From positions 1 through 64,000 of the IMG/VR virus record IMGVR_UViG_3300037391_000017: 64,000 nucleotides of DNA; one strand, given 5' to 3'. This document shows, piece after piece, positions 7,292-50,714 of this stretch. This stretch comes from a virus. Under the pieces are notes generated by a model. That model searched no databases and had not been told where the DNA came from. It saw only the letters and a list, made by a program, of their open reading frames with translations. The first letter of the stretch is position 1. Every line of letters begins with the position of its first letter. The position numbers and the translations under genes were made by a program.

Positions 7292-8962
7292 CTACTGTTT
7301 GCTATCGGGAGGAGCTTGCTGTGTTTCCCGTTGAATCTTAACCACGGGCGGGTCTTTCCTCATCCCGTACCCGCTGTTATCTTTGTCACGACCCGCGTTG
7401 GCCTCTTCGTCATCAGACCAGTCGTCGTAAGAACCCGTGCTTTCCTTGGGCGGGCTGACTTTCTTCCGCTTGTCGTACTTGCCGTTGGACGCCGAGGATT
7501 CAATCCACCACCGCTGTGAGCCCTCAGTGTAGGACTTGGCGTATGGCTTATCCTCGATGAATTTGTTCTCACCCGGGGTCACGAGACCGCTGACTTCCGA
7601 GCCATCTTCGAATTCGAAGATCAGCTTGCGGGTGTTGCTGTACTCATCGACCTTCGCCTGAACCTTCTTGGCGAAGTCACCCTTCGGACGATAATACTCG
7701 ATCACCTGACCAGCCGAGGCATCGTAACGCTTACCCGCTTTGGTGTATTCCTTGGCGATGTACTCGATCTCGCGGTACTGGCTATGTTCGTGATCTATAT
7801 CGGTGCCATCCGTTGGCATCTGCATCTTCTTGAACTTGATGCGGACGTTGAAATTGTCCCCCATCGCGGTCACGTACTTGTAGGGGACGATCCAGCCGTC
7901 TGCCTCAGCCGACTTCTCCCACGGATCAATTGGCTTATCCGTGCGGGAGATTTCGATCTTGAACAGATTGTGTGGGGGCAGGGTGCGGTTGTCCTTCTTC
8001 TTGTCGGCGAAGAGGGTAGCCAGCAGGCTGCCATCGCGGATTACATCCTGCACATTCTCGATGTTGGAGACCGACTCAAGGATGTCTGGCAGGCCAAATC
8101 CGGCATCGCGACCTTCACGGTCGGTGTCAATCAAGACCACTGCGCCATAGCCGCCAGTCGGGAAGAAAATCTTGAGAGCGGGCTTCGACTCTTGCTTGCC
8201 GTCAATCACACGGTAGCCTTCGATGTAGTTGCCCTTGTTGTTCTGCGGTTGATCTTCAGTGATGATCTTGTAGTTCGTCAGCCGAATGCTCATCTTCCGA
8301 GCCTTCCAGAGGAAAGCTTCGCTATCGTCTGGGTGAGCGGGATCGGCGACTTTGTGGTCGAAGGGGCTGGAGAAGTCCAATTCAAGCGACTCAATCTCTT
8401 TCAGGGAGCCGTCCTTCTTGGCACCCTCAACCTCGTCAGACTTGAATGGAAACGCCTCGGACAAATCCTTGGACGTGAAAATCTTGCGGATGTTATACCC
8501 GCCGCTCATTTCAGCGTCACGCCCGTACTCTTCCTTATCGCCCATCTTCTGTTGGAACTCGTTGTACAGGTAGGCGGTGTGCACGCGGGCCTTCTGAGCC
8601 TCGGTGACCTCTTCTTCATGCTCCAAGTCCTTGCGGAGATTGAAGGTTTCGAGGTACTGGCGCATCTCCTGATTATTGGGGTCGAGAGAAGAGTTCAGGT
8701 CATTCAGCACAACGTCAATCTGGCTGTCAACCTTGGCGGTCGGCACCTTGCCGTAGATCACGACGTACTGGCCCGTGCCTTCCTTCACTTCACGAGCCCA
8801 GCCGATACGGTCATAGTAAGCGAACGCGGCAAGGACTTGCTTCTTCGTCCAGTGCTTCTCTTTGCCAGCGTCCTCAAACGCTTGACGGTAGGGCGGCACG
8901 CAGCTAGCTAGGAACATCGTGGCGATTATTGCGAGGGTTGCTAGTACGGTACGGAACTTCAT
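7292..8962 (-). CDS. Predicted lipoprotein of unknown function
   Basis: Signal peptide with LASC lipobox; 556 aa. Confidence 0.75.
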   Translation of the reverse strand: MKFRTVLATLAIIATMFLASCVPPYRQAFEDAGKEKHWTKKQVLAAFAYYDRIGWAREVKEGTGQYVVIYGKVPTAKVDSQIDVVLNDLNSSLDPNNQEMRQYLETFNLRKDLEHEEEVTEAQKARVHTAYLYNEFQQKMGDKEEYGRDAEMSGGYNIRKIFTSKDLSEAFPFKSDEVEGAKKDGSLKEIESLELDFSSPFDHKVADPAHPDDSEAFLWKARKMSIRLTNYKIITEDQPQNNKGNYIEGYRVIDGKQESKPALKIFFPTGGYGAVVLIDTDREGRDAGFGLPDILESVSNIENVQDVIRDGSLLATLFADKKKDNRTLPPHNLFKIEISRTDKPIDPWEKSAEADGWIVPYKYVTAMGDNFNVRIKFKKMQMPTDGTDIDHEHSQYREIEYIAKEYTKAGKRYDASAGQVIEYYRPKGDFAKKVQAKVDEYSNTRKLIFEFEDGSEVSGLVTPGENKFIEDKPYAKSYTEGSQRWWIESSASNGKYDKRKKVSPPKESTGSYDDWSDDEEANAGRDKDNSGYGMRKDPPVVKIQRETQQAPPDSKQ

Positions 8963-28987: not shown

Positions 28988-29730
28988 ATTTCGAAAACCT
29001 CCGCTTTGTACTCTTGTTGCCTCGGCCCCATGTTTACTCTTTCATGAGGGTAACCAAAAGGATAACACACCACATGCGTTTCTCCAAGGAAGTATTCCGC
29101 CATGCCATGCGTGTGCCCATGAAACCAGTATCTCGGCTGTTTGGCTTGGATCAGTTCCGTCTCATCCGATACGAAAAACCGATTGGTCGGTTGATTGAAA
29201 AACTGTGGCGGCGTGCTCCGAGGGTGCGGCAGATGATGACTCAACACCACGGTCTGAGGCGTCACCAGCCGCATCGCAGCCTCGCGGAACGCAAAGTTGT
29301 CATCGTACACCCACTGACGAAGGTCCTTAATCACGTGGAAATCCGACATGAGGTTCTCGTACAACTGGTTCAACGGTTGATGGGGAAACCACATCGTGCC
29401 GCCGAAGAAGTGGATGCCGTCGAGAGTCACATCGCTGTTTTGCAGCCAGACGAAGTTCTTCGGCATGTAAGACCTGAGAACAAATTCCGTTCGCTCGCGG
29501 GTGCCGCCGTAGTATTCGTGGTTGCCCGTGGTGTAGAGGACGTGGCGGGCTTTCTTGCTCAGGAAGTCGAGCACGTCCTTGACATTCTTCGGATGCTGGC
29601 GGCAGGGAACGACGATATCTCCGGGTAGGGCGAGGAAATCCAGATCGGGGGCGAAGTCTATCCGCTTGAGAACGGACAGCGGCATGTCATAGAACTCGGT
29701 GTGCAGGTCGCTGACGATCTGGAGCTTCAT
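28984..29730 (-). CDS. Calcineurin-like metallophosphoesterase
   Basis: SDLH, GD, GNHE, HHLP, HGHTH. Confidence 0.9.
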   Translation of the reverse strand: MKLQIVSDLHTEFYDMPLSVLKRIDFAPDLDFLALPGDIVVPCRQHPKNVKDVLDFLSKKARHVLYTTGNHEYYGGTRERTEFVLRSYMPKNFVWLQNSDVTLDGIHFFGGTMWFPHQPLNQLYENLMSDFHVIKDLRQWVYDDNFAFREAAMRLVTPQTVVLSHHLPHPRSTPPQFFNQPTNRFFVSDETELIQAKQPRYWFHGHTHGMAEYFLGETHVVCYPFGYPHERVNMGPRQQEYKAEVFEI

Positions 29731-30109
29731 AGGGAGTAATACTCAAAAATATCGTGCAAGGATTTGTCCCGCTCAAACGTTTATATCAACGACAGGAAAA
29801 TAAAGTCGCTGACGGTCGGGAGAAACAGGCCCCTCGAACGTTTTTATCTTTGACGGGCTGTAACGCTTTGACCCCTCCCGTGCGATTTACAAATATACGG
29901 TGCGTTTTTCACCGTCTCAGCGTCTTTGTCTAATAGGAGAACACACGTGAACTTTGATTCGTTGTGCGCCGTTGGCCGTATGTATATTATAGCACGGAGG
30001 ATCGTGCTCGGGATAGTCTTCTTGGCTGCCGCAGGGCTGGGCGTGACTATCTACAAACTGCAACATCAACCCGTCCAGTACGACACGGACGGCTACCAGA
30101 ACCATAGGT

Positions 30110-30352
30110 ATGACGCAAGGTACGAACCAGTTGTGCTGGATGGGCTGCGGTCGGGAAGCCAAGTTCGGGGGTGGGAGCGAGCAGCTTAGGTGCTCGAAGA
30201 AGACCATTGACTGTCCCCAGTTCAAAGCACGGACGATGACGGGTAACCGTGGCGTCCGCAACTGGGGCTCGTTCGCAAATAACGCCTCGCAGAACACGCG
30301 AAACATGATCGGCAACGCCAAGTCGTTCAACATTCGAAGACGCGGCAAGTAA
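30110..30352 (+). CDS. Small Cys-containing hypothetical protein
   Basis: CWMGCG..C..CP; converges on the end of the tRNA array. Confidence 0.5.
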   Translation: MTQGTNQLCWMGCGREAKFGGGSEQLRCSKKTIDCPQFKARTMTGNRGVRNWGSFANNASQNTRNMIGNAKSFNIRRRGK

Positions 30353-30355
30353 AAT

Positions 30356-30431
30356 TGGGGGCGTTTACGGGAGTCGAACCCGCCATCATGTGATTGAAAG
30401 TCACAGGTCCAAGCCGATAGACGGAAACGCC
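30356..30431 (-). tRNA. tRNA-Glu(TTC)
   Basis: Cloverleaf, loop CT-TTC-AA, encoded CCA. Confidence 0.9.
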
Positions 30432-30608
30432 ATGTTTCTAAACTCTGCGGTTGTTGTCCACAACCCCTGCAAGGGCAGCGACCTTCAACCGCTTTGGGAC
30501 TTGGCTGTACCAAAATCCGTACACTTCACGTTTGCAGACGTTGCTGCACGAACATCGCGGGTATTCGCCGTATTCCCCGCCAGCCTAGAGGAAACTACCC
30601 CCTAATCT

Positions 30609-30684
30609 TGGTACGCCGTGTTGGACTCGAACCAACGGTCTCTACCTTGTCATGGTAGCGATTTAGCCGCTAATCTAACAGCGC
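30609..30684 (-). tRNA. tRNA-Val(GAC)
   Basis: Cloverleaf, loop AT-GAC-AA, CCA. Confidence 0.9.
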
Positions 30685-30686
30685 AC

Positions 30687-30775
30687 TGGTGTACCCGAGA
30701 GGGATCGAACCTCCGACCTGCTTCCAGCAACCCGAAGGCTGATGGAAACCGCTCTGCCAGTTGAGCTACAGGCAC
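30687..30775 (-). ncRNA. Anticodon-less tRNA-like RNA (G3:U70, A73, UUCG-capped long arm)
   Basis: Normal acceptor, D and T arms and CCA; anticodon arm is gtttcca-t-cagcc-TTCG-ggttg-c-tggaagc. Confidence 0.85.
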
Positions 30776-30846
30776 AAACAAACTGGTGGAAAGGAAACCC
30801 CGGCAAGGATTTTACATTGCTACATGTCTGCAACAACCCACCCGTA

Positions 30847-31056
30847 CTATTTCTGAGCTTCTCGGATTGCTCGTAGAAGCGCATTCTGCGAAGCATCCTC
30901 GGGCAAACCATACTCCAAGTTCGCCTTCTTCAAATGTGCATCCCTACGCAACCCCGTATCGATACCGAACTCGTCTTCGAAGGTTCCGACGTGCTTGTCG
31001 TTACGTGTCTTGCGAATCTGACCATCTTCATCTGTAGAACGATCATCTAGTCCCAT
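30847..31056 (-). CDS. 69-aa protein (MGLDDRSTDEDGQIRK...)
   Basis: AGGAGG SD. Confidence 0.7.
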   Translation of the reverse strand: MGLDDRSTDEDGQIRKTRNDKHVGTFEDEFGIDTGLRRDAHLKKANLEYGLPEDASQNALLRAIREAQK

Positions 31057-31071
31057 ACAGCCTCCTAAACT

Positions 31072-31147
31072 TGGTGGACCCGAGGGGATTCGAACCCCTG
31101 ACCTCCGCAGTGCGAGTGCGGCGTTCTCCCAACTGAACTACGAGCCC
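31072..31147 (-). tRNA. tRNA-Ala(CGC)
   Basis: Cloverleaf, G3:U70, CT-CGC-AC. Confidence 0.95.
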
Positions 31148-31539
31148 AACTCAAAATCTTTCGCCCAACGGATACCGTCACGCTGGTTGTTCTTCGACGG
31201 TGCCAAACGCAACTGGCATCCAGCGATAGGCGCATCTATCACGGGAATTACGTACACCTTATCGAGTTCCACGCAATACACCGCAAACAAATCCGCATCC
31301 CCACGATAGTCCCGACGTGGACAATTTCGAGATTGGCTACAGGTGTCAAATCTTAAAACAGTACGACCCCTGCACAGACGCCCTTTCTTCACTTGAATCC
31401 GCACGGCGTTCGCACCATCCAGAGTCACCAAATCGTACCGCTGGGCGTCCCCAAATGGGACCAGAACCTCTTTACCGTTTCTTACCAGTGCCGCCAGTAC
31501 AGCGGCCACAGCCATGTTTCCCGCTTGAGAGCTATTCAT
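31138..31539 (-). mobile_element. PD-(D/E)XK homing-endonuclease-like protein (group I intron-associated family)
   Basis: PFGDAQRYDLV, IQVKKG, DYRGDADLFAVYC; own TG-TAGAAT promoter. Confidence 0.8.
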
Positions 31540-31557
31540 CTCTCCATTCTATCACAC

Positions 31558-32625
31558 CTACTCGCCCGCGATAACCGAGTGTAGGGGAGAGGACGGCTCC
31601 CACACGAGCTTCCCATCCGTTGCCCCTCCATCTTTCGCATGTTTTTCAGCAGTTGCCTTGAGCAGCGCGGCCACACTATCCAGATTCGCAAGGTGCGGTG
31701 TAATCGGGCCATGTTCTAGGCAATCCACCGTGAAGAAACGAAATCCAAAATCCGTGCCTTCTGATGCTTCACATCGCCGCCCACACTGCGGACAAACGAT
31801 GAAAGTCTCACTATGCCCGTCCTCCTCCACCTTTACCATGATCTTGAAATCCATTATCACTGGCTCGGCTGGCGTTTCCTCGCGATTATACGCAGGTGCG
31901 GTATGCCGGGATGAATCCTTCTGCCAATCAATATCCCACCGACGAAACACAGAACCCGAAGCTACCAACTTCGCCGCCATGTAATTGAAATAGTAATCGC
32001 GCAATTGATCCACCACGGGAGACACTTTCTTATCTTTGAGTAGCGGTGCCCAAGGGTACGCCCAGCGCCCGTTGTCCATCTTAATTTTCATGTTCGCCGA
32101 CATCACCACGATAGCCTGCACGTGCGGAAGAGACTCCTTTCCAGTATCTTTCTTGTACTTGAGCATAATCCGTTCGCACAGAATCAAGAAATCTGTTGGG
32201 TGATGTAGACGATTATTCTCGTTCGCAATCAAAACGAGTCCGAAAGCATCTGGCTTATTCAGACGGCGCTTGGACGCCTTGATCTGGAAGTTGGCTTTGA
32301 GGATGTGGTTCTTAATGGATGGTTCCAGCAGAGCACACCACTCGTCTTGTAGGTCAAGGGACAAGTCTTTCAACCTGAGCATCGTCTGCCCAATCGGAGC
32401 AACGCGGCCCGACGCCTGCCAACGTGCAAACATATCCGTTAATGCCGCGTAGTATTCGTCTGACGGGTCTTCCAGCAGCGTCTTTTGCTCCACGATCAAG
32501 TTGAGGTCGGGATACCAGTAATCTGCGCTCGGCTCACCCTCTTCGGTGGAGAACGGGATTAGGGTTCCTCCGACAGCGACCGTGATGTCACGCCACAACT
32601 GCTCCGACTTTGCAAACTGAAACAT
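31558..32625 (-). CDS. PD-(D/E)XK-like nuclease with a C-terminal zinc ribbon
   Basis: Start re-called at MFQFAK after GGAGG; SADYW..LIVEQKTL; CPQC...CLEH. Confidence 0.6.
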   Translation of the reverse strand: MFQFAKSEQLWRDITVAVGGTLIPFSTEEGEPSADYWYPDLNLIVEQKTLLEDPSDEYYAALTDMFARWQASGRVAPIGQTMLRLKDLSLDLQDEWCALLEPSIKNHILKANFQIKASKRRLNKPDAFGLVLIANENNRLHHPTDFLILCERIMLKYKKDTGKESLPHVQAIVVMSANMKIKMDNGRWAYPWAPLLKDKKVSPVVDQLRDYYFNYMAAKLVASGSVFRRWDIDWQKDSSRHTAPAYNREETPAEPVIMDFKIMVKVEEDGHSETFIVCPQCGRRCEASEGTDFGFRFFTVDCLEHGPITPHLANLDSVAALLKATAEKHAKDGGATDGKLVWEPSSPLHSVIAGE

Positions 32626-32641
32626 ACGTCCTCCGTGAACT

Positions 32642-32717
32642 TGGTGCACCTTGCAGGATTTGAACCTGCGACTCCCACCGTGTGAAAGTGGTACTCTGGC
32701 CGCTGAGTTAAAAGTGC
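32642..32717 (-). tRNA. tRNA-Val(CAC)
   Basis: Cloverleaf, TT-CAC-AC, CCA. Confidence 0.9.
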
Positions 32718-32723
32718 AAAACT

Positions 32724-32799
32724 TGGTAGCGTTGATGGGAGTCGAACCCACCGTCATTGCATTGAGAGTGCAAGGTCCAAACCGATAGACGGCAACGCC
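32724..32799 (-). tRNA. tRNA-Glu(CTC)
   Basis: Cloverleaf, CT-CTC-AA, CCA. Confidence 0.9.
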
Positions 32800-32869
32800 A
32801 CAATCATATAATTGGCCCTTTTAGTGAAATTCTTCACGGTTTTGGCCGTTTTATACGACGTAATAAACT

Positions 32870-32945
32870 TGGTGGACCTAAGGGGGGTCGAACCCCTGAC
32901 CTCATCCATGCCATGGATGCGCTCTCCCAACTGAGCTACAGGCCC
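32870..32945 (-). tRNA. tRNA-Ala(GGC)
   Basis: Cloverleaf, G3:U70, AT-GGC-AT. Confidence 0.95.
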
Positions 32946-32948
32946 AAA

Positions 32949-33356
32949 TTACCACTCCCAAAGTTTCGCGTCGATGTACTCCGCGATGTTGTTCTTTGGA
33001 CGTTCGTACCGCAACGTTAAAACCGATTGTCCATCCCACAAAACCGCTGGGAGCATGTAAACTTTATTCGTTTGCGGCGAGTACGCTGCGATGAAATCAA
33101 CCTCAGCCGCCGTATACTTTTTCCGCTTCTTGTTGTGACCGATGGACGACACTTTCACTTGGAAGCTGCCACTCGTTGCTTTGGACGATGCTCCCGCGTA
33201 CTTAACCTGCACACGAGACAGCTTCCCGTCCACATCCATCACTAAATCGTAGCGGCAATTCTCCGTTACGGGGCGACTCATCATGACGCCCTTTTCAATT
33301 GCGCGGAGCAGAACCCTAAGAATGGCCTGCTCACCCTTGGTCGTGGTTATATCCAT
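32949..33356 (-). mobile_element. Second PD-(D/E)XK homing-endonuclease-like protein
   Basis: TTTKGE, RYDLV, RVQVKY, YTAAEVDFIAAY; TG-TATCAT-N6-ATG. Confidence 0.85.
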
Positions 33357-33378
33357 CTTACGATGATACCACAAAATC

Positions 33379-33453
33379 TGGAGCGAGTGGTGGGATTCGA
33401 ACCCACGACCTGATGGTTGGGAACCACCTATTCTACCACTGAACTACACCCGC
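33379..33453 (-). tRNA. tRNA-Gly(CCC)
   Basis: Cloverleaf, U73, TT-CCC-AA. Confidence 0.95.
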
Positions 33454-33511
33454 AGCGGGTGCGAGAAGGGGCTCGCGTCGTCTCGGCTCCGTTTAGCCGA
33501 ACCCGTAATCT

Positions 33512-33586
33512 TGGAGCGGACAGCGGGGCTCGAACCCGCGACCTCATCCTTGGCAAGGATGCGTTCTACCACTGAACTATGTCCGC
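33512..33586 (-). tRNA. tRNA-Gly(GCC)
   Basis: Cloverleaf, TT-GCC-AA. Confidence 0.95.
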
Positions 33587-33793
33587 ACTACGTGTGTCCC
33601 AGTCGGTCGGCTTTCACCACAATTGGTTCGGATTTCTCGGAACCAACGCCCCTGTTGGGGATCGAGTCTCGCAGCCGCAGCTACGGCGTTTTTCACTTTC
33701 GTGTCCACGCGGATCACACGGGTTACTTATTTGGGGAGGATGGGCGTTACTCCAGTTTTGACCTCCGTCCAACAACGGAGCCTCCCCTAATCT

Positions 33794-33868
33794 TGGAGCG
33801 AGCAACGGGAATCGAACCCGTCTCTGTGGCTTGGAGGGCCACGGCACCGCCAGTTATACCTTACTCGC
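33794..33868 (-). tRNA. tRNA-Gly(TCC), atypical (A8, C33)
   Basis: Cloverleaf, CC-TCC-AA, U73-CCA. Confidence 0.85.
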
Positions 33869-33879
33869 TTAAAGTATTC

Positions 33880-34254
33880 GTGTTGAACCTATAGCCGGGA
33901 TTCTGTCGCGGACGACCATTCCTCTAGGCGTTGCATCACTACAACGCTCAAGCACCCTACCCGCTGATTACCCGCCTCTTGCGAAGCGAACGGATCGAAC
34001 ACAATCCTGCTCAGCCTATTTGGGCTTCTGCACGTGGAGATTGCTCGTTTCACCCGAACTGAATCGGCTCGTCTCTGTAGCTCTAATCGTCAACACCCTT
34101 GCGGGTGCCGCCCAGCCGTTAGCTGGCACGCTGTTCTTTGCAGTCCCGAACTTCCTCCCCTGCGCTCAACGCCGGACTTGGTTGGGAAGGCTTTCGCCAA
34201 CGCTTCCAAGCACAGGACGTATATCTACGCAGCGGCGGTCGTCCAGTTCAACAC
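33880..34254 (-). ncRNA. rnpB: RNase P RNA, bacterial type A-like
   Basis: P1 gtgttgaac/gttcaacac; GAGGAAGUUCGGGA and ACAGAAUCCCGGCUAU forming P4; tgccag-taac-ctggg, acagagacgag, gggtgaaac, ctagaggaatg landmarks in order. Confidence 0.9.
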
Positions 34255-34331
34255 AAATTTTCAAAGAGCCTACTATACTAGGCGAAAGCTGACCTTCTGC
34301 CTCTAAAGCCCAATATGCTAGGCTTTAATCT

Positions 34332-34407
34332 TGGAGCACCCGGTCGGTGTCGAGCCGACTCAGTAGTGGTTTTGCAGACCACCGCGTTCCCGTTTCGCCA
34401 CGGATGC
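34332..34407 (-). tRNA. tRNA-Cys(GCA)
   Basis: Cloverleaf, CT-GCA-AA, U73. Confidence 0.85.
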
Positions 34408-34529
34408 AAACTTTTTGAAAGCACTCGACTCGGTAGGGTTCGATTCCTACATAAGCGCACAACCACCACGCTATTTATTGGAACAGGCGATTTAGCCTGC
34501 CTTAACTTACGTCTGGCGCTCTCAAAGCT

Positions 34530-34606
34530 TGGCGGTGACGGGGGGATTTGAACCCCTATATTCTCCCGTGACAGGGGAGCCCATTAGCCAGTTATGGTAC
34601 GTCACC
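34530..34606 (-). tRNA. tRNA-Asp(GTC)
   Basis: Cloverleaf, CT-GTC-AC, G73. Confidence 0.9.
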
Positions 34607-34612
34607 AAAATT

Positions 34613-34691
34613 TGGCGGGGACGACGGGATTTGAACCCGCGATCTCTTCCGTGACAGGGAAGCATGTTAGACCGGGCTACACCACGGCCCC
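34613..34691 (-). tRNA. tRNA-Asp(GTC), second copy
   Basis: Cloverleaf, CT-GTC-AC, G73. Confidence 0.9.
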
Positions 34692-34705
34692 GCATTACAA
34701 AAACT

Positions 34706-34780
34706 TGGAAGCGGCGGCGAGAATCGAACTCGCGAATAAAGACGTTGCAGGTCTCGACCTTACCACTTGGCTACGCCGCT
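34706..34780 (-). tRNA. tRNA-Cys(GCA), second copy
   Basis: Cloverleaf, CT-GCA-AC, U73. Confidence 0.9.
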
Positions 34781-34793
34781 GTGAATCTAAAAT

Positions 34794-34868
34794 TGGTGGA
34801 CACGGGGGGATTTGAACCCCTTCTTTCACTTTGCAAGAGTGACGCATTCCCAGTTATGCTACCGGCCC
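34794..34868 (-). tRNA. tRNA-Ala(TGC), divergent acceptor stem
   Basis: G3:U70, CT-TGC-AA, mismatches at pairs 5 and 6. Confidence 0.8.
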
Positions 34869-35086
34869 ATTTTTGCTGGCTTCGCGACACTCTTCAACGT
34901 GCCGTGAGTCAGATCAAACTCTAATTGCCGAACCACCATCTTGTCCATCTTGTCGAGGACTTCATCCTCGGTGTCGGCAGTCGCAACTAATCCCAACGTC
35001 GGGTGCCACGCTTGGAAGCCCCAATCCTGTCTCTCGACCTCTACAGTCGTGACCAGCTTTACGATACGTGATCTGTTGCGTTTCAT
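34859..35086 (-). CDS. HicB-like fold small protein
   Basis: VEVERQDWGFQAWHPTLGLVATADTEDEVLDKM matches the HicB N-terminal pattern. Confidence 0.55.
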   Translation of the reverse strand: MKRNRSRIVKLVTTVEVERQDWGFQAWHPTLGLVATADTEDEVLDKMDKMVVRQLEFDLTHGTLKSVAKPAKMGR

Positions 35087-35101
35087 CTTTCAATCCAATC
35101 T

Positions 35102-35177
35102 TGGTGCGCCGGGTGGGACTCGAACCCACGGTAGTCGTCTTGTAAGGGCGATGCTTTAGCCGCTAAGCTACCCGCGC
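35102..35177 (-). tRNA. tRNA-Val(TAC)
   Basis: Cloverleaf, CT-TAC-AA, CCA. Confidence 0.9.
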
Positions 35178-35189
35178 AAATTTTACCGC

Positions 35190-35222
35190 AAAAACAAAAA
35201 GGACGCTCTGTTTGAGCGTCCT
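35190..35222 (-). terminator. Attenuator terminator immediately upstream of the tRNA array
   Basis: aggacgctc-aaaca-gagcgtcct then ttttgttttt. Confidence 0.85.
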
Positions 35223-35271
35223 CGGAAACCGTTGATTTGGAAGTTGTTACTCTCCAAACCCTCCCGAGGAC
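35218..35271 (-). promoter_or_regulatory. Antiterminator hairpin
   Basis: gtcctcggga/ttccgaggac (10 bp) plus ggtttggag/ttccaaatc; overlaps the 5' arm of the terminator. Confidence 0.75.
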
Positions 35272-35378
35272 ACCATATCTCCTACCGCCGCCGCGTCAGC
35301 GGCGACAGTACCGCGTTCGGCTGCGCTACACGCTGCGACCGTCACGATAACACCTGCGTTTTGGAGATTGGAGTTCAT
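35247..35378 (-). CDS. 43-aa GNN-codon-rich leader peptide MNSNLQNAGVIVTVAACSAAERGTVAADAAAVGDMVSSGGFGE
   Basis: 26 of 43 codons are GNN; first ATG after the promoter; stop lies in the antiterminator loop. Confidence 0.75.
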   Translation of the reverse strand: MNSNLQNAGVIVTVAACSAAERGTVAADAAAVGDMVSSGGFGE

Positions 35379-35393
35379 AAGCGTCTCTGTACT

Positions 35394-35421
35394 ATAATAC
35401 CCGAATTTCAAAAACTTGCAA
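35394..35421 (-). promoter_or_regulatory. Sigma70-like promoter of the tRNA operon
   Basis: TTGCAA-N16-TATTAT. Confidence 0.7.
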
Positions 35422-35600
35422 CAACTATTTTTCAGAAAAGAGCGAGAGCCTATGTCCTGCACCCGCGTTGCGGGAAAACTAAGCGGACAAACGCCGTCTC
35501 CGACCGACCTAACGCGAGGGCATGATCCCCGTTCGCTTATCGGCTCTCTTGCTGGTGCAGCTTCATCAGGCGGATGAGCGCCAACTGCATCAGCGAAACT

Positions 35601-35676
35601 TGGTGGACCTGAACGGGCTCGAACCGATGACCTCTTCCTTGCAAAGGAAGCGTTCTCCCAACTGAACTACAGGCCC
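35601..35676 (-). tRNA. tRNA-Ala(TGC), upstream of the attenuator
   Basis: Cloverleaf, G3:U70, TT-TGC-AA. Confidence 0.95.
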
Positions 35677-35862
35677 AGACGTTGCAGGTCTTTCAACATG
35701 CAACAAATCCCCCAATTCATTCGCATCCCTCAGGACGGTGACACGTACCTGTGGTCGGGGGTCTGCGGGACATACTCTAAGGCTGTCACGCCCTATCGCC
35801 TTTCGGCTGAGCAGCGGTAAACCGCAGGCATACACTAATACAATACCGTAGTCTGGGCATTT

Positions 35863-36108
35863 TTACAAGCGAGTCGTGACTTCTTTGTAGATGCCGTCTA
35901 TTCGCTCAACGAATCCGCTGATGCCTGTGTGCTGCTCCAGCCAGCGAGTCGTCTGGTTGCCCTTGCGGGCGTCCATCAACTTGTGCAGCCGAAGCGCCAG
36001 CGTGCGGGCCTTCTTCTCGTCACCGCATGTGTGTCGCACGTACTCATGGCGCGGCGAAGCGTCGTAGTTGTAGACCAACAGGTTGATGTAAATTTTGTCG
36101 CTCTTCAT
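35863..36108 (-). CDS. Hypothetical protein
   Basis: GGAGG SD before MKSDK; ATGA coupling. Confidence 0.6.
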   Translation of the reverse strand: MKSDKIYINLLVYNYDASPRHEYVRHTCGDEKKARTLALRLHKLMDARKGNQTTRWLEQHTGISGFVERIDGIYKEVTTRL

Positions 36109-36281
36109 TGCGCCTCCGTCCATGAGTCGCGAACCAATTCGTCCAGTAACCATTCATCGTCCTCGCGGGCGGGCGTCCAACCGAATAGGCGTTCCAGCCC
36201 CGTATCGAACATGCCGCCCTGCCAGCACCGAAACGTCAGGTACACGGCGAGCACTACGAACCATGCGACGAGAAACTTCAT
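36105..36281 (-). CDS. 58-aa membrane peptide (MKFLVAWFVVL...)
   Basis: Read manually; ATGA-coupled on both sides. Confidence 0.55.
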   Translation of the reverse strand: MKFLVAWFVVLAVYLTFRCWQGGMFDTGLERLFGWTPAREDDEWLLDELVRDSWTEAQ

Positions 36282-36454
36282 CCGACCTTACCCCCTGCGC
36301 CAACTTCGTAATTGATGATCGCCTGAACCAAGTCCACCCGCTTGCGACGGTCTGCCCAATCAACGTTGTACTGCCGCTCAACCCGCCGAAACAGTCTGCG
36401 GAGTTTGCGGAAGGTCATCGCTGTCAGTTCCTCTCGTCGCTCGCCGATAGTCAT
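36278..36454 (-). CDS. Small basic helical protein
   Basis: AGGAG SD before MTIGE. Confidence 0.55.
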   Translation of the reverse strand: MTIGERREELTAMTFRKLRRLFRRVERQYNVDWADRRKRVDLVQAIINYEVGAGGKVG

Positions 36455-36522
36455 GGTTCTCCTGTCTAAACTTTGGGGCACGCTGGTTTCATCCAAGACG
36501 TGTCTAGAATCCCCGCCGACCG

Positions 36523-36804
36523 TTAGGGAATATTTGCGAGGAGAACGACATCAGCCCAATTGTTTTCTCCGGGCTCGTCTGTGTCGTTCCAATCCTCACG
36601 TTCCCAATGTGTGTCGTCTTCACGACCGTTCCACAGCTTGTTATCGCGGACTTTGGTCACGCGAATATCTCGTACTGGACGCGGCCCCCACTCGGCATCG
36701 CCGCGAAGGACTGGCGTCTCCGGTGAAAGTTCCCCACGCTCGACGCGAGCCTTGAGTGCTTCCACCTGTTCGATCAACTGCCCGAGATTGATTCCAGTGT
36801 CCAT
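36523..36804 (-). CDS. Hypothetical acidic protein
   Basis: 93 aa ORF. Confidence 0.6.
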   Translation of the reverse strand: MDTGINLGQLIEQVEALKARVERGELSPETPVLRGDAEWGPRPVRDIRVTKVRDNKLWNGREDDTHWEREDWNDTDEPGENNWADVVLLANIP

Positions 36805-37305
36805 TTGATTGACTGGCGGCGATCACAGGGACTTCACGCTCCCACCTTGTCCGCGAGTAATGGAGGCTGGCCTAGCCTACTCACGTGACGCCTTTGTCCT
36901 GTAGACCGCTGCTAGTAAATCAAAAAGCTTGTGTGACCTCAGCCTAGCACTAGGGGGTTTCAGGGGCAAACCAGCAGCCGAACTGTCTGGCGGCATTCCT
37001 ACACCTGTGCATTGCTCACCGAAGCCACAGCAAGATCAAAAGTGGGGAGGGCGGGGTGCAGGATGACCGCAACTTCTTCGACCAGTAAACCACGTCTGGC
37101 TGTTAACGGCGTCCTGCACCCCAAATGTTGTGGGTCGGTTGATTGCCGACCAGTTGAGCGTTGTTTCCGAGGCCGTAGCCTATAGAGGTCGAGTCGTTCA
37201 GTTCGTACCCATTGTGTCCACCCCTCAGATGGTTACGCTGTCGCCTATTATCGGAAATTCACAAGCCGTGCGACACCGCGCCTGTTACTGTGTATCAACG
37301 ATACA

Positions 37306-47270: not shown

Positions 47271-50200
47271 ATGGGCGGAATCGGTGGAGTACCTCCGGGC
47301 AGCGGCGGCACCCCTCCCCCCTCTAATCCGGGTGGAGGTGGTGGTGACCCCAACTTTGAGTTTTTTAAGGACGCCGCTGGTGCCGCCAAAATCTACGCCG
47401 ACTCTAACCTATTGGTCGCAAAAGCTCTAGAGGCGATGACGGGACAGGTAGAGACCGCCGATAAGAAGATCGCAAAATTCAGAGATAACCTACGCGGCAG
47501 CATCCTCATCGCCGACAACACCACCGAAGCTTTGAAACTCATGACCGACCAGACCAAGGGTCTGGCCCGTGCCTTCTTGGAGAAGAAGGGATTCGAGAAC
47601 GCCAAGAAAGCCTACGAGGGCATGATCCACAACTTAAGGGAGATGGTGAAAGACGGCAAGGCCAACGAAAGACAGATAGCGGCGATGAACGGTCAGATCG
47701 CCAAGTTGGTGCAAGCCGAACATAAACTCAACGCCGTAGGCAAGGATTTGTTCGAGGCATCCGAAGAAGGTTGGAAGGGGGTCGCAAAGGACATAAACGG
47801 GGTTGCCGTAAGCGTGGCTAAATTGAATACCGCTCTCAGTCAGGTAAAGATGGGAAAGATCGGTACGGCAGTCGCGGGCGTGCGGCAAGACCTCATCACG
47901 TCGGGGTTGATGAAGGCTGGCAAGATGGAAAAGTTCATGGACATTGGTATGGCGGGCACCAAGCTCAGAGAACTTGGGAGACAAAAGAAAGAAGCGAAAA
48001 CCGAGGATCGGGCGGGTATACGCGCACACGCTCAAGACACCCTGTTGGATTTGGAGAGGAAGGGCCACGTCAAGCTGAAGAAGACTGGTACAGGCGAAGT
48101 CGATTGGGCTGGCATGGCAGCGATGAAGAAGAAAGACTTAAAGGGAGTGGGGGGAGTCGGCGGTAATTTAGGAACAACGATGAATCTGTTAGCCGATGCG
48201 AATACCGCACCCAGAGCGGGGTTGATGTCGAAGCTTCAGGGCGGCGGGCTCGTGCAGGATGCGATAGGTAAGGGCGCAGAGTTGGCGGGTCAGTTTGCCC
48301 TCCCGTTGGCAATCGCCGAGACGATCAAGGATTTGATCGTGTCGCTTATCGATAAAAATGCCGCGATGAATAAGCAGGCCGAAGCTGGTGGTGGTGGGCT
48401 CGGAGCATTTCTAGGCCCGGGTTCTGGCTCGGGTGCGGACACCATGTTGGCAATTCGTAACAACCTCGCTGGGCTGAGACCCGGAGAGTTATTCAGTAAA
48501 TACGGCTTGGGGTACGACCGAAACATCAAGATGGCACAATCCATCCAGCAGTCGGGCTATCTGATGCCTGAAATCGGGGAAGGTGGAGCCGCAGGAGCCG
48601 CAAGAGATACTGATTTCGGCCCCGGAGCTTTTGGTGACGTTCAAAAGATTGCCGCTACGTCTGGACGTATGCTGGGTATGAGCGACGATCAGTCCATCCA
48701 AATGACCATGAAGCTGCTCATGCAGTACAGAGAGTCCATGGAGGGCACGCAAAGTTTTTTCACTAACTTGACGAAAGATTCTCGGGCCGCTGGGATATCC
48801 GCCACGAAGTACGTGTCGATCATTGATGAGATTCTCAGTGGCTTCGATATGATGAACAAAAGCTTGGATCAAGTGACGGGCACTATGCGTGTGCTGAGCC
48901 GCACGGGGAGAGGGACTAGCGAAGACTTACAAGCCATGATGCAGTCGCTCACTGGTGCAGGCCGCGCACCGCTGGATACGGCTAGTATGACGTTTGCGGC
49001 TATTCAAATGAAGAAGGGCGGCGGACAAGCGGGAACCGTCTTAGAGTCGGCTCAAGAAGAGAGTCTCACTACCGCAGCAAATCAGATAACGAAATCGCTA
49101 GGGAAAATCGGCATCAATTACGATGCGGGTTCCGTCAGAACCATGATGACCACCGCCGCTGGTCGTGACCAACTTCGTGCGGCTATCGACACCGCGAAAG
49201 GTGCGGGTGCAAGCGGTACGATGGTCACAAACGCTTATGCGACGGTAGACCAAGGACAGCAGAGAGCAATCGCCTTGGACGTAACCAAGAAATTCATGAA
49301 ACCGGGAGCGAGCCCTCTCGACTGGTCTACTGGAATCAGCGCCCTTAAAGACCCTCAAATCATGGAACAAGTCCGCGCCACGCTGGAAGATTTCATGATG
49401 CAAAAAGCGGGTTACACCCGAGAGGACATGATATCGGGGAGAGCCCTACCTCCGAAGTTGAAATTGATGTTAGAAGGAACGTTCCAAGGATTCCAAGAAA
49501 CTGATATCGCGAAGCGGGCGATGGCGGCACAAAATGCCGCATCAGGGCGTTTCGGTGCTGCGGCTGGAAGAGACCAATTCATTGCAACTGGCAAGCCAAC
49601 AGATGAGGTGGACAGAAAGAAATTCGAGGAAGCCCAAGAAGCGCAAGCGGAAAAGTTGGCCGATGAGCTTGGGAAGTTGATGCCCGACGATAAAGAGATG
49701 CAAGATCAACTCAAGGCTATGAGGGCTCTCAATCCTAAAGATCGAAACTGGGTCAGTCTCTTTAGGAAGATCGATAAAGACACAACCCAAAGCGGGTTCA
49801 AGGGGAAGATCATACACGCCCTTTCGAAGTCCGATGGCACGTGGAAAGAGATTCTAGACGGTCAGGATACGGCTTTGAGTTCCCAGCAAGAAGCAGCTAA
49901 GCAAGCCGAGATTGATGAGAAGGCTCAGTCCGTTGCGTCTGCCACACAGGACACGGCGGAAATATTTGCAAACGTGTTCTCCACCTACTTCAACAAGATC
50001 ATCGGCATCTTGGAACAAGTCAGGACGTGGATGGCTCACTCCAAATTCTTTGGCGGTCTATCCGAGGCCGATGAAAAGAAGGCGGCGGATTTGATAAAGA
50101 ACCAAGAACAGAACCTCAAGGACGCCAAGGCCGCTAACCTCATTCAGATCGATTGGTTGAAGTCACAGAAGAACGTAGAAACAGACCCGATAAAGAAGGC

Positions 50201-50714
50201 TCAGCTTCAGGCGAGAATAGACAGCGAGCAGAAAAAGCGGGATTACTCACTCAACAAGGGGGTGGGGGATTACGGCGTGAATTCAGGCCGCGATATTTAC
50301 CAAGCTCAAGCTGAGTTGGCTGATGCCGCTGGTGAGCTTGGGGCTCAGTATGGCCCGCTAACAGAGGCGATGGGAAAACTGAACAAGCAGGCGGATGCTG
50401 CGGGAGATTTTACGCTTTCACCCGAAGAGTACAAGCGGTATCAGGGAGTAATCGACGCCTACCCAGCCAGCATGTTAGATGTCAAAACACAGAAAGACGC
50501 TTCGGGCAACGTGACTAATATCACCATCCATGAGGTGCACAATTCCGTGGACATCCAGCATCAGAGCAACGCGGCGGATATTGCCAGTCGTGCTTCGTCC
50601 AACATCGCGGCGAATGCGACCAGCGGACAAACCCCGTACACAGGGTCATCGCCCGGTTCAAGAGAATCGATTAACGCAGCGAGGGCAGCGAGAGGAATGC
50701 CGCTCCTTAAGTAA
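47271..50714 (+). CDS. Tape measure protein
   Basis: 1147 aa, helical, Ala/Gly/Lys/Met-rich, lies between chaperones and baseplate genes. Confidence 0.7.
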   Translation: MGGIGGVPPGSGGTPPPSNPGGGGGDPNFEFFKDAAGAAKIYADSNLLVAKALEAMTGQVETADKKIAKFRDNLRGSILIADNTTEALKLMTDQTKGLARAFLEKKGFENAKKAYEGMIHNLREMVKDGKANERQIAAMNGQIAKLVQAEHKLNAVGKDLFEASEEGWKGVAKDINGVAVSVAKLNTALSQVKMGKIGTAVAGVRQDLITSGLMKAGKMEKFMDIGMAGTKLRELGRQKKEAKTEDRAGIRAHAQDTLLDLERKGHVKLKKTGTGEVDWAGMAAMKKKDLKGVGGVGGNLGTTMNLLADANTAPRAGLMSKLQGGGLVQDAIGKGAELAGQFALPLAIAETIKDLIVSLIDKNAAMNKQAEAGGGGLGAFLGPGSGSGADTMLAIRNNLAGLRPGELFSKYGLGYDRNIKMAQSIQQSGYLMPEIGEGGAAGAARDTDFGPGAFGDVQKIAATSGRMLGMSDDQSIQMTMKLLMQYRESMEGTQSFFTNLTKDSRAAGISATKYVSIIDEILSGFDMMNKSLDQVTGTMRVLSRTGRGTSEDLQAMMQSLTGAGRAPLDTASMTFAAIQMKKGGGQAGTVLESAQEESLTTAANQITKSLGKIGINYDAGSVRTMMTTAAGRDQLRAAIDTAKGAGASGTMVTNAYATVDQGQQRAIALDVTKKFMKPGASPLDWSTGISALKDPQIMEQVRATLEDFMMQKAGYTREDMISGRALPPKLKLMLEGTFQGFQETDIAKRAMAAQNAASGRFGAAAGRDQFIATGKPTDEVDRKKFEEAQEAQAEKLADELGKLMPDDKEMQDQLKAMRALNPKDRNWVSLFRKIDKDTTQSGFKGKIIHALSKSDGTWKEILDGQDTALSSQQEAAKQAEIDEKAQSVASATQDTAEIFANVFSTYFNKIIGILEQVRTWMAHSKFFGGLSEADEKKAADLIKNQEQNLKDAKAANLIQIDWLKSQKNVETDPIKKAQLQARIDSEQKKRDYSLNKGVGDYGVNSGRDIYQAQAELADAAGELGAQYGPLTEAMGKLNKQADAAGDFTLSPEEYKRYQGVIDAYPASMLDVKTQKDASGNVTNITIHEVHNSVDIQHQSNAADIASRASSNIAANATSGQTPYTGSSPGSRESINAARAARGMPLLK

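Follow-up and report, generated by a model that had tools for sequence, protein, structure and literature searches.

The leader and the tRNA array

The stretch of DNA analysed here (the window) is the first 64 kb, i.e. 64,000 nucleotides, of a single virus contig of 103,414 bp with 54% G+C (IMG/VR record IMGVR_UViG_3300037391_000017). On its minus strand, 15 transfer RNA (tRNA) genes are preceded by a leader composed of a promoter, a short open reading frame (ORF), a hairpin and an intrinsic terminator. The features are the following:

35394-35433, minus strand: promoter from a consensus scan, with an A/T-rich tract (35433-35422), a -35 element TTGCAA (35421-35416), a 16-nt spacer and a -10 element TATTAT (35399-35394)
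35247-35378, minus strand: leader ORF of 43 codons, from the ATG at 35378 to the TAA at 35249-35247, encoding MNSNLQN... and rich in Ala, Val and Gly
35283-35357, minus strand: codon-sampling window, codons 8-32, with 20 of 25 codons (19 GNN plus TGT) read by the downstream tRNAs
35284-35309, minus strand: predicted inner G+C-rich hairpin within the ORF (11 pairs, 4-nt loop, core GTCGCCGC-N4-GCGGCGGC)
35215-35274, minus strand: putative antiterminator hairpin, its 5' arm being codons 36-43, with the stop codon (35249-35247) in its apical part
35190-35223, minus strand: intrinsic terminator, GGACGCTC-AAACA-GAGCGTCC followed by TTTTTGTTTTT, the T run ending at 35190
30356-35177, minus strand: array of 15 tRNA genes with interspersed small ORFs (ARAGORN, Rfam)
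33876-34254, minus strand: bacterial class A ribonuclease P (RNase P) RNA (Rfam RF00010, 165 bits for a gathering score of 100)

The leader ATG lies 15 nt downstream of the -10 element, leaving a 5' untranslated region of about 8-11 nt if transcription starts, as assumed here, about 7 nt past the -10. The terminator has a G+C-rich stem of 8 bp, extendable to 10 pairs, and only 12 nt separate its T run from the first tRNA gene, tRNA-Val(tac) at 35177. As in the attenuators of amino-acid operons, a short ORF is found between the promoter and the first regulated gene, and an intrinsic terminator ahead of this gene. The promoter, the 43-codon ORF, the terminator, the 12-nt gap and the 15 tRNAs had been placed on the minus strand by a first-pass annotation, and all of its coordinates hold. 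Consensus scans for promoters and terminators gave no enrichment over shuffled sequences in the leader region; it is their conservation in relatives, and not their match to a consensus, that makes these sites convincing.

The array comprises tRNA-Val (tac, cac, gac), tRNA-Ala (tgc, ggc, cgc), two tRNA-Asp(gtc), tRNA-Glu (ttc, ctc), tRNA-Gly (tcc, gcc, ccc) and two tRNA-Cys(gca). It holds all the anticodons normally used for GNN codons plus the two tRNA-Cys, i.e. exactly the GNN and Cys decoders. The RNase P RNA gene lies inside the array, between tRNA-Cys and tRNA-Gly(tcc), and was detected at the equivalent position in four related loci (L001:7499-7881, L003:17181-17555, L006:8940-9257 and L009:16051-16349; 151-189 bits). 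From this gene arrangement, the phage appears to co-express the ribozyme of tRNA 5' processing with its tRNAs.

Codon content of the leader

Among codons 8-43 of the leader, 26 out of 36 are GNN. The leader uses 15 of the 16 GNN types, namely the four Val, four Ala, two Asp and two Glu codons as well as GGT, GGA and GGG, GGC being absent, and it contains one Cys codon (TGT). The array has 13 anticodon species, none of which lacks a cognate codon in the leader ORF. These counts, the list of codons and the sampling of every array anticodon had been advanced from the sequence and were confirmed by a codon recount. The putative regulatory codons correspond to the downstream product, since 20 of the 25 codons from 8 to 32 are read by tRNAs of the array.

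Compared with the GNN fraction of the long ORFs of this phage (0.347), at least 26 GNN codons out of 36 has a binomial P of 5e-6, a raw count that is inflated by the G-rich structural 3' end of such leaders. Only three places in the 103-kb contig reach 26/36 GNN, and the leader alone also has 15 distinct GNN codons. Taken separately, 15 distinct types among 26 GNN codons are only mildly unusual (P = 0.07).

Homologous leaders in related phages

No close relative of the window phage was found among the deposited phage genomes. We used the ribonucleotide reductase gene located 3.7 kb upstream of the leader as a query, which recovered 32 related IMG/VR loci, including records of 463, 455 and 332 kb (loci are designated below by L numbers). 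Homologues of the leader were then searched by BLAST of the 255-nt leader against these loci, by a degenerate pattern search and by a generic scan. A search of viral contigs with the exact 30-nt terminator pattern found no relatives. In total, 12 distinct homologues were identified (window, L001, L002, L003, L005, L006, L007/L008, L009, L030, L031 and L036). Homologous leaders occur in uncultured relatives, two of them of 455-463 kb.

All homologues present an A-tract, a -35, a -10, an ATG followed by an A-rich second codon, and a terminator. For nine of them, the end of the leader is 2-24 nt from the first tRNA of a GNN+Cys array. Their frame is open over 34-46 codons and contains in-frame indels only: the conserved GTCGCCGC motif lies 51, 63, 69, 72, 75 or 81 nt from the ATG, all multiples of 3. 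In the codon alignment, conservation is 0.81 at position 1 and 0.69 at each of positions 2 and 3, which is the reverse of an ordinary protein gene, and several columns retain G at position 1 across 3-6 different amino acids. In addition, every GNN leader has a Cys codon (mostly TGT, but TGC in L007/L008), although Cys codons represent 0.8% of the codons in the long ORFs of this phage. The C-terminal third of the peptide varies freely while the RNA encoding it still pairs. The first-pass annotation had called for a comparison with related phages, and there the homologues retain the open frame, the GNN bias, the Cys codon, covarying hairpins and the position ahead of the array.

This pattern of conservation bears on two other explanations of the locus. 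According to the first, the leader would act without being translated, as a structured RNA to which tRNAs or a protein bind directly, much as in a T-box or a riboswitch, and the open frame would be incidental. The RNA structure is indeed strongly conserved and covarying (see below), and translation of the leader is a prediction. However, conservation of codon position 1 would be meaningless in an untranslated RNA, the frame is open from a conserved ATG, every indel has a length divisible by three and in all cases the tip of the hairpin contains the stop codon. Moreover, in a Rfam scan of 29500-37000 at E up to 1, no family matched 35190-35425, T-box (RF00230) included; only tRNA, RNase P and chance matches were obtained in this region. 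The conserved frame points to the ribosome as the reader, and not to direct binding of tRNA as in a T-box, and we regard an untranslated sensor as very improbable.

According to the second, the true gene would be a plus-strand ORF of 97 codons (35232-35525), antisense to the leader. Long stop-free antisense stretches are present in all homologues, but these frames are open because the GNN-rich composition lacks antisense stops, so that stop-free counts cannot separate the strands. Such a gene would also have to cross a conserved promoter and a conserved terminator of the opposite strand, and to recur in every differently written paralogue, and no such protein family is known. An antisense gene can hardly be credited.

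An RNA structure predicted to switch

The hairpin at 35274-35215 has GGACGC at the end of its 3' side, a segment that also belongs to the 5' arm of the terminator. This hairpin was first described as taking the 5' strand of the terminator; this applies to 6-7 of the 8 nt and not to the whole arm. The putative antiterminator therefore shares one strand with the terminator, and its other strand is the end of the ORF, an arrangement also found in the attenuators of amino-acid operons. The 90-nt fold containing this hairpin has a free energy of -35.3 kcal/mol (z = -3.67), and the upstream 62 nt reach z = -5.3 against 1000 mononucleotide shuffles.

We then looked for covariation in the relatives. 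From ten sequences, RNAalifold recovered the lower stem of the antiterminator, with 10 pairs, five of which show compensatory changes and almost none of which is broken. A covariance model built from this alignment detected 15 copies, paralogues included. In the resulting 15-sequence alignment, which was fitted to the covariance model, 14 of the 18 pairs display double changes, and the covariation score is 0.365, compared with 0.170 for shuffled alignments (none of 500 reaching 0.365) and 0.08-0.10 for controls with slid partners. The terminator stems also vary between relatives yet stay complementary (e.g. GGGCGACC/GGTCGCC or GGGACGAACC/GGTTCGTCCC). Across 16 leaders belonging to five codon classes, the stop codon is located in the tip of the hairpin, 21-32 nt (mostly 23) ahead of the terminator, whose 5' arm has 6-10 nt engaged in the hairpin. 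The shared strand differs by class (GGACGC, GCCGCC, ACCCGCC or CCCGGAGCC). Thus, when one of the three segments (antiterminator arm, shared strand, terminator arm) changes, the other two change with it, as one would expect from a switch.

For the window transcript, we modelled translation by placing a 28-nt ribosome footprint at each codon. A ribosome whose A site is at any of codons 6-32 leaves the antiterminator as the predicted fold, with a terminator probability of at most 0.08, whereas one at codon 33 or beyond, up to the stop, gives the terminator with a probability of at least 0.91. The unoccupied transcript is also predicted to fold into the antiterminator. The predicted switch is thus seen between codons 32 and 33, and the stretch permissive for the antiterminator coincides with the GNN/Cys run. 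It had been proposed that a ribosome reaching the stop would bring about termination while stalling, or a lack of translation, would give read-through; the folds with and without masking agree with both halves of this proposal. In non-GNN leaders, for which we folded the RNA downstream of a stalled ribosome only, cognate codons represent 55% of the codons in the antiterminator-permissive window vs. 18% outside (Fisher 1.4e-7, which is not a true probability because the leaders are related); a version of the masking model in which pairs could span the ribosome had been noisy and not significant (P 0.11).

The inner hairpin (35309-35284) is a separate structure. Its stem sequence is retained in 10 of the 12 GNN leaders with a variable loop, and it shows neither covariation nor pairing with the antiterminator strand. 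It may be a pause hairpin that holds RNA polymerase until the ribosome arrives.

Paralogous leaders ahead of other tRNA sub-arrays

Three large relatives carry 49-69 tRNA genes each, distributed in several sub-arrays sorted by amino acid. Terminators are found directly ahead of most of these sub-arrays and almost nowhere else in the same loci, and each of these terminators is preceded by a short ORF that uses the codons of the sub-array in question. Equivalents of the A-tract, the -35 and the -10 precede every homologous and paralogous leader. For example, the leader of the Ser(gct, gga, tga, cga) and Leu(taa) sub-array has the core TCC TCA TTA TCG TCG TCT AGT AGC TCC, and it uses all six Ser codons together with TTA, the sole Leu codon read by its tRNA-Leu. 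The leader of a Trp/His/Arg/Asn/Gln/Lys array (..KHN..RKQWRNRRH..) uses all four CGN codons. Likewise, a Tyr/Leu array is preceded by ..SLSLSLLYSLL.., an Ile/Thr/Gln array by MKQTQTTRTTTTQRI.. and a Pro/Met/Phe array by MN.MRPFTMFRP..

The match between leaders and arrays was then scored as the fraction of the codons of each leader that can be decoded by each array. The actual pairing ranked first in all three large relatives, among 720 permutations for the 463-kb genome, 24 for the 455-kb genome and 6 for the 332-kb genome; these three genomes are related and do not amount to three independent trials. The expectation that each tRNA sub-array of related phages would have its own codon-matched leader is thus borne out, leader codons matching the anticodons that follow them.

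This match also bears on a further explanation, an independent small gene. In that case, the promoter, the ORF and the terminator would produce a peptide or a small RNA, the terminator would merely insulate the tRNA operon, and the array would be expressed by constitutive leak-through or from an unrecognised phage-specific promoter. The terminator is strong, and thermodynamically dominant in most relatives, the ORF has no Shine-Dalgarno sequence and the tRNAs of two relatives start about 400 nt past the terminator, all of which would suit such a gene. On the other hand, insulation leaves unexplained both the leader-array codon match and its placement in the permissive window. In the window, the T run is only 12 nt from the first tRNA, and the peptide is poorly conserved in comparison with the codon class, the frame, the position of the stop codon in the tip and the overlap with the terminator. 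We consider an insulated small gene quite improbable.

Two sets of paralogues call for a separate description. The leaders of the Pro/Met/Phe arrays (MN.MRPFTMFRPC..; L048, reverse strand upstream of tRNA-Pro; L043, about 7940-8044; L045, about 7690-7871) differ in their 3' structure: the stop codon is part of a short hairpin, and a second hairpin, which is G+C-rich and has a poor T run, comes next; a simple terminator scan called no terminator in these three leaders. In addition, the contig of the window itself carries an Ile/Thr/Gln leader outside the window, on the plus strand (about 103108-103250). It encodes MKQTLQTRTTTTQRITT..., with all four Thr codons together with Gln and Ile codons, and its hairpin and terminator directly precede a tRNA-Ile(gat) at the contig end. 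In relatives, the counterpart of this leader is followed by an Ile/Thr/Gln array.

Leaders in a cultured phage

An ORF of 1147 residues in the window (47271-50714) aligns to the annotated tape measure protein of Tunturi 5, a jumbo phage of Acidobacteriota, which is the only cultured phage with a detectable match to this ORF. The tRNAs of Tunturiibacter phage Tunturi 5 (PP885688.1; 309 kb; host Tunturiibacter psychrotolerans X4BP1) are grouped in another way than in the clade of the window, and this phage has three leaders that match its own three arrays:

L051 1169-1318, 9235-9391 and 21586-21800: the three leaders of Tunturi 5, given as about 231156-231305, 239222-239378 and 241573-241800 in PP885688.1

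The leader MKTLCLSSYCLSSSLSLS.. precedes a Leu/Cys/Tyr/Ser array and the leader MQHVSTFRFAVPATAGNPAGQQGT.. precedes a Gln/Gly/Thr/Pro/His/Ala/Phe array. The remaining one is gp308, annotated as a hypothetical protein, whose 49 codons are rich in Lys, Arg, Asp, Val, Trp, Glu and Met and which precedes a Trp/Asp/Met/Lys/Val/Arg/Glu array. In all three leaders the stop codon lies inside a long hairpin, 25-31 nt ahead of the terminator, and the hairpins hold 6-9 nt of the 5' arm of the terminator. Cys is grouped with Leu, Tyr and Ser in Tunturi 5 and with the GNN decoders in the clade of the window, and the Cys codons of the leaders move accordingly. The tRNAs are not annotated in the Tunturi 5 record; the paper describing this phage lists 43 tRNAs and does not mention leaders or attenuation. 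Because cultured Tunturi 5 carries analogous leaders, the idea can be tested at the bench. The tRNA arrays of Sinorhizobium phage Phosso are unsorted.

Probable ribosome-mediated attenuation of a tRNA operon

Taken together, the comparative data make it probable that transcription of a tRNA operon (15 GNN/Cys tRNAs and RNase P RNA) is controlled here by a multivalent leader-peptide attenuator that depends on the ribosome. Transcription would start from a strong sigma-70-type promoter, and the first 132 nt would encode a 43-codon test peptide. When decoding is fast, the ribosome would be at codons 33-43 or at the stop while the polymerase makes the terminator; it would cover the 5' arm of the antiterminator and leave GGACGC free to pair with GCGTCC. 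Transcription would then end 12 nt short of the first tRNA and the array would be off. When decoding is slow, with a stall in codons 6-32 for want of a cognate charged tRNA, or when no ribosome is loaded, the antiterminator would form first, hold 6-7 nt of the 5' arm of the terminator and let the polymerase enter the array. Control of read-through by stalling is our inference. The tRNAs of one codon family would be topped up only under slow decoding of that family, and the sister leaders would serve the other codon families alike. Because the tRNAs produced would in turn speed up the decoding that is sensed, such a loop would keep each tRNA family at an amount sufficient to bring decoding back to speed. 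Possible triggers are the cleavage of tRNAs by host defences, a phage codon usage to which the host tRNAs are ill-suited, or starvation.

Several observations weigh against this attenuator. No Shine-Dalgarno sequence was found upstream of the leader ATG, and translation of the leader is predicted from the conservation of its frame. The final 8-12 codons are G-rich for structural reasons in all leader classes. Codons 2-7 and five of the 25 codons of the sampling window are not read by the array, so that a stall at any of these would lead to read-through as well. In L031 and L005, the first tRNA is located about 400 nt past the terminator. Some tRNA genes stand outside any leader, namely a tRNA-Ala (35601-35676) and Thr and Lys/Leu/suppressor tRNAs at 93-100 kb of the contig. 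As the homologues are related to each other, the counts made across them are not independent. Furthermore, the terminator combined with a shortened hairpin is at least as stable as the antiterminator state in most relatives, and equilibrium masking predicts termination at every ribosome position in these relatives. The switch must then be kinetic, the antiterminator winning by forming first. The support for the attenuator interpretation of the first-pass annotation is strong but comparative. We rejected equilibrium masking in relatives as a test of a kinetic switch, since the terminator state is favoured there regardless of the ribosome.

A distinct question is what a real attenuator would sense. 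It might respond to amino-acid supply or to general translation capacity rather than to tRNA abundance, in which case phage tRNA synthesis would follow starvation or the general flow of ribosomes, and not the loss of particular tRNAs. What the mechanism detects is the speed of the ribosome, so it cannot tell an uncharged tRNA from a missing one; the ribosome-free model gives read-through, so any global drop in initiation would switch the array on; and the permissive window contains non-cognate codons. However, a tRNA output cannot relieve a shortage of amino acids, and a general sensor does not need six differently written leaders. Moreover, instead of using a single codon over and over for each amino acid, the leaders cover synonymous codons and isoacceptors (e.g. 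15 of the 16 GNN codons, or all six Ser codons together with TTA), which fits sensing at the level of the anticodon. A sensor of amino acids or of general translation is thus unlikely. We lean, with some reserve, towards a codon-family-resolved supply of tRNA on demand, in which about six paralogous attenuators would sample nearly the whole genetic code, each switching on only the tRNA block whose codons are slowly decoded, together with RNase P RNA in the case of the present block.

Comparison with known regulatory systems

Multivalent attenuators are known in enterobacteria, where the ilvGMEDA leader contains Ile, Leu and Val codons and the thr leader contains Thr and Ile codons; trpL, hisL, leuL and pheL also belong to this class. 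In the trp attenuator, the choice between folds is kinetic and the antiterminator wins by forming first. Like the leaders of this class, the phage leader has a short ORF after the promoter with a series of test codons that cover several amino acids, a stop codon beside the antiterminator strand, and a strand shared by the terminator and the antiterminator; the position of the ribosome would pick the fold, by a choice that would be kinetic and not thermodynamic. By contrast, the regulated genes are neither amino-acid biosynthesis enzymes nor a synthetase, but 15 tRNAs and an RNase P RNA, and they are encoded by a phage. With such products, the element is not a plain member of the trp/his/thr/ilv class. 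Two more differences are that synonymous codons and isoacceptors are sampled here, and that a set of paralogous leaders partitions nearly the whole code. In addition, the phage leader has no clear 1:2 protector pairing, so that an untranslated leader is predicted to read through, unlike in the attenuators of amino-acid operons.

The ilvGMEDA and thr leaders are the nearest in mechanism, and the pheST leader is the nearest in kind of output. In Escherichia coli, pheST is controlled by attenuation through the pheM leader and encodes phenylalanyl-tRNA synthetase. In both cases a component of the decoding apparatus is attenuated according to slow decoding of its own codons, but pheST concerns a synthetase, a single amino acid and a cellular genome. 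The T-box riboswitches also act by antitermination ahead of genes of the translation apparatus and respond to tRNA status; unlike the phage leader, a T-box is untranslated and directly binds one uncharged tRNA by means of a specifier codon.

The literature that we searched gave no account of leader-peptide attenuation of tRNA genes, and a survey of huge phages is silent on it too. The only regulated extra tRNA array that we found in print is the trn operon of Anabaena sp. PCC 7120, an array controlled by a repressor at promoter repeats (PMC8421152, PMC10272220). Like the phage array, it is normally silent and turned on when translation is impaired, but it is not codon-family-resolved and not in a phage; the papers on it do not mention a leader peptide or attenuation (PMC8421152, PMC10272220). 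The reason why phages carry tRNA genes has been debated for decades, and for over 50 years according to one source (PMC10264068). The main ideas are codon compensation and escape from tRNA-cleaving defences (PMC10264068, PMC11555353, PMC12409363). If the attenuator is real, phage tRNAs would be made to relieve a decoding shortage, with a supply regulated per codon family, and a huge phage could gauge the decoding capacity of any host in real time and replace exactly the tRNAs that are scarce or destroyed by host anticodon nucleases. Textbook leader-peptide attenuation, which concerns amino-acid and synthetase genes, would then extend to tRNA genes and to viruses, and the leaders would be ready-made natural reporters of decoding speed for defined codon sets.

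Other genes in and around the array

The proteins of the contig include tail-fibre-like proteins, a helicase and a class II ribonucleotide reductase. Within the array, two minus-strand ORFs with no Pfam match are interleaved with the tRNAs (34859-35086, 75 residues; 31558-32640, about 360 residues). Both would be co-transcribed with the array, and no relatives of the 360-residue ORF were found in viral contigs. A tRNA-like gene (30690-30775, minus strand) lies beside tRNA-Val(gac) in the array, with a Rfam score of 41.7 bits and no ARAGORN call.

Upstream of the leader promoter, the lone tRNA gene at 35601-35676 (minus strand) is a tRNA-Ala(tgc) beyond the control of the putative attenuator, and the same situation is observed in L001 and L003. 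A -10-like sequence, GGTATTGTATTAG, is located about 150 nt ahead of it (region to about 35830), with no leader ORF or terminator there. Outside the window, on the plus strand of the contig, a permuted transfer-messenger RNA called by ARAGORN overlaps a tRNA-Thr(ggt) at 93612-94012, and two tandem tRNAs with the amber-reading anticodon CTA are present at 100290-100461.

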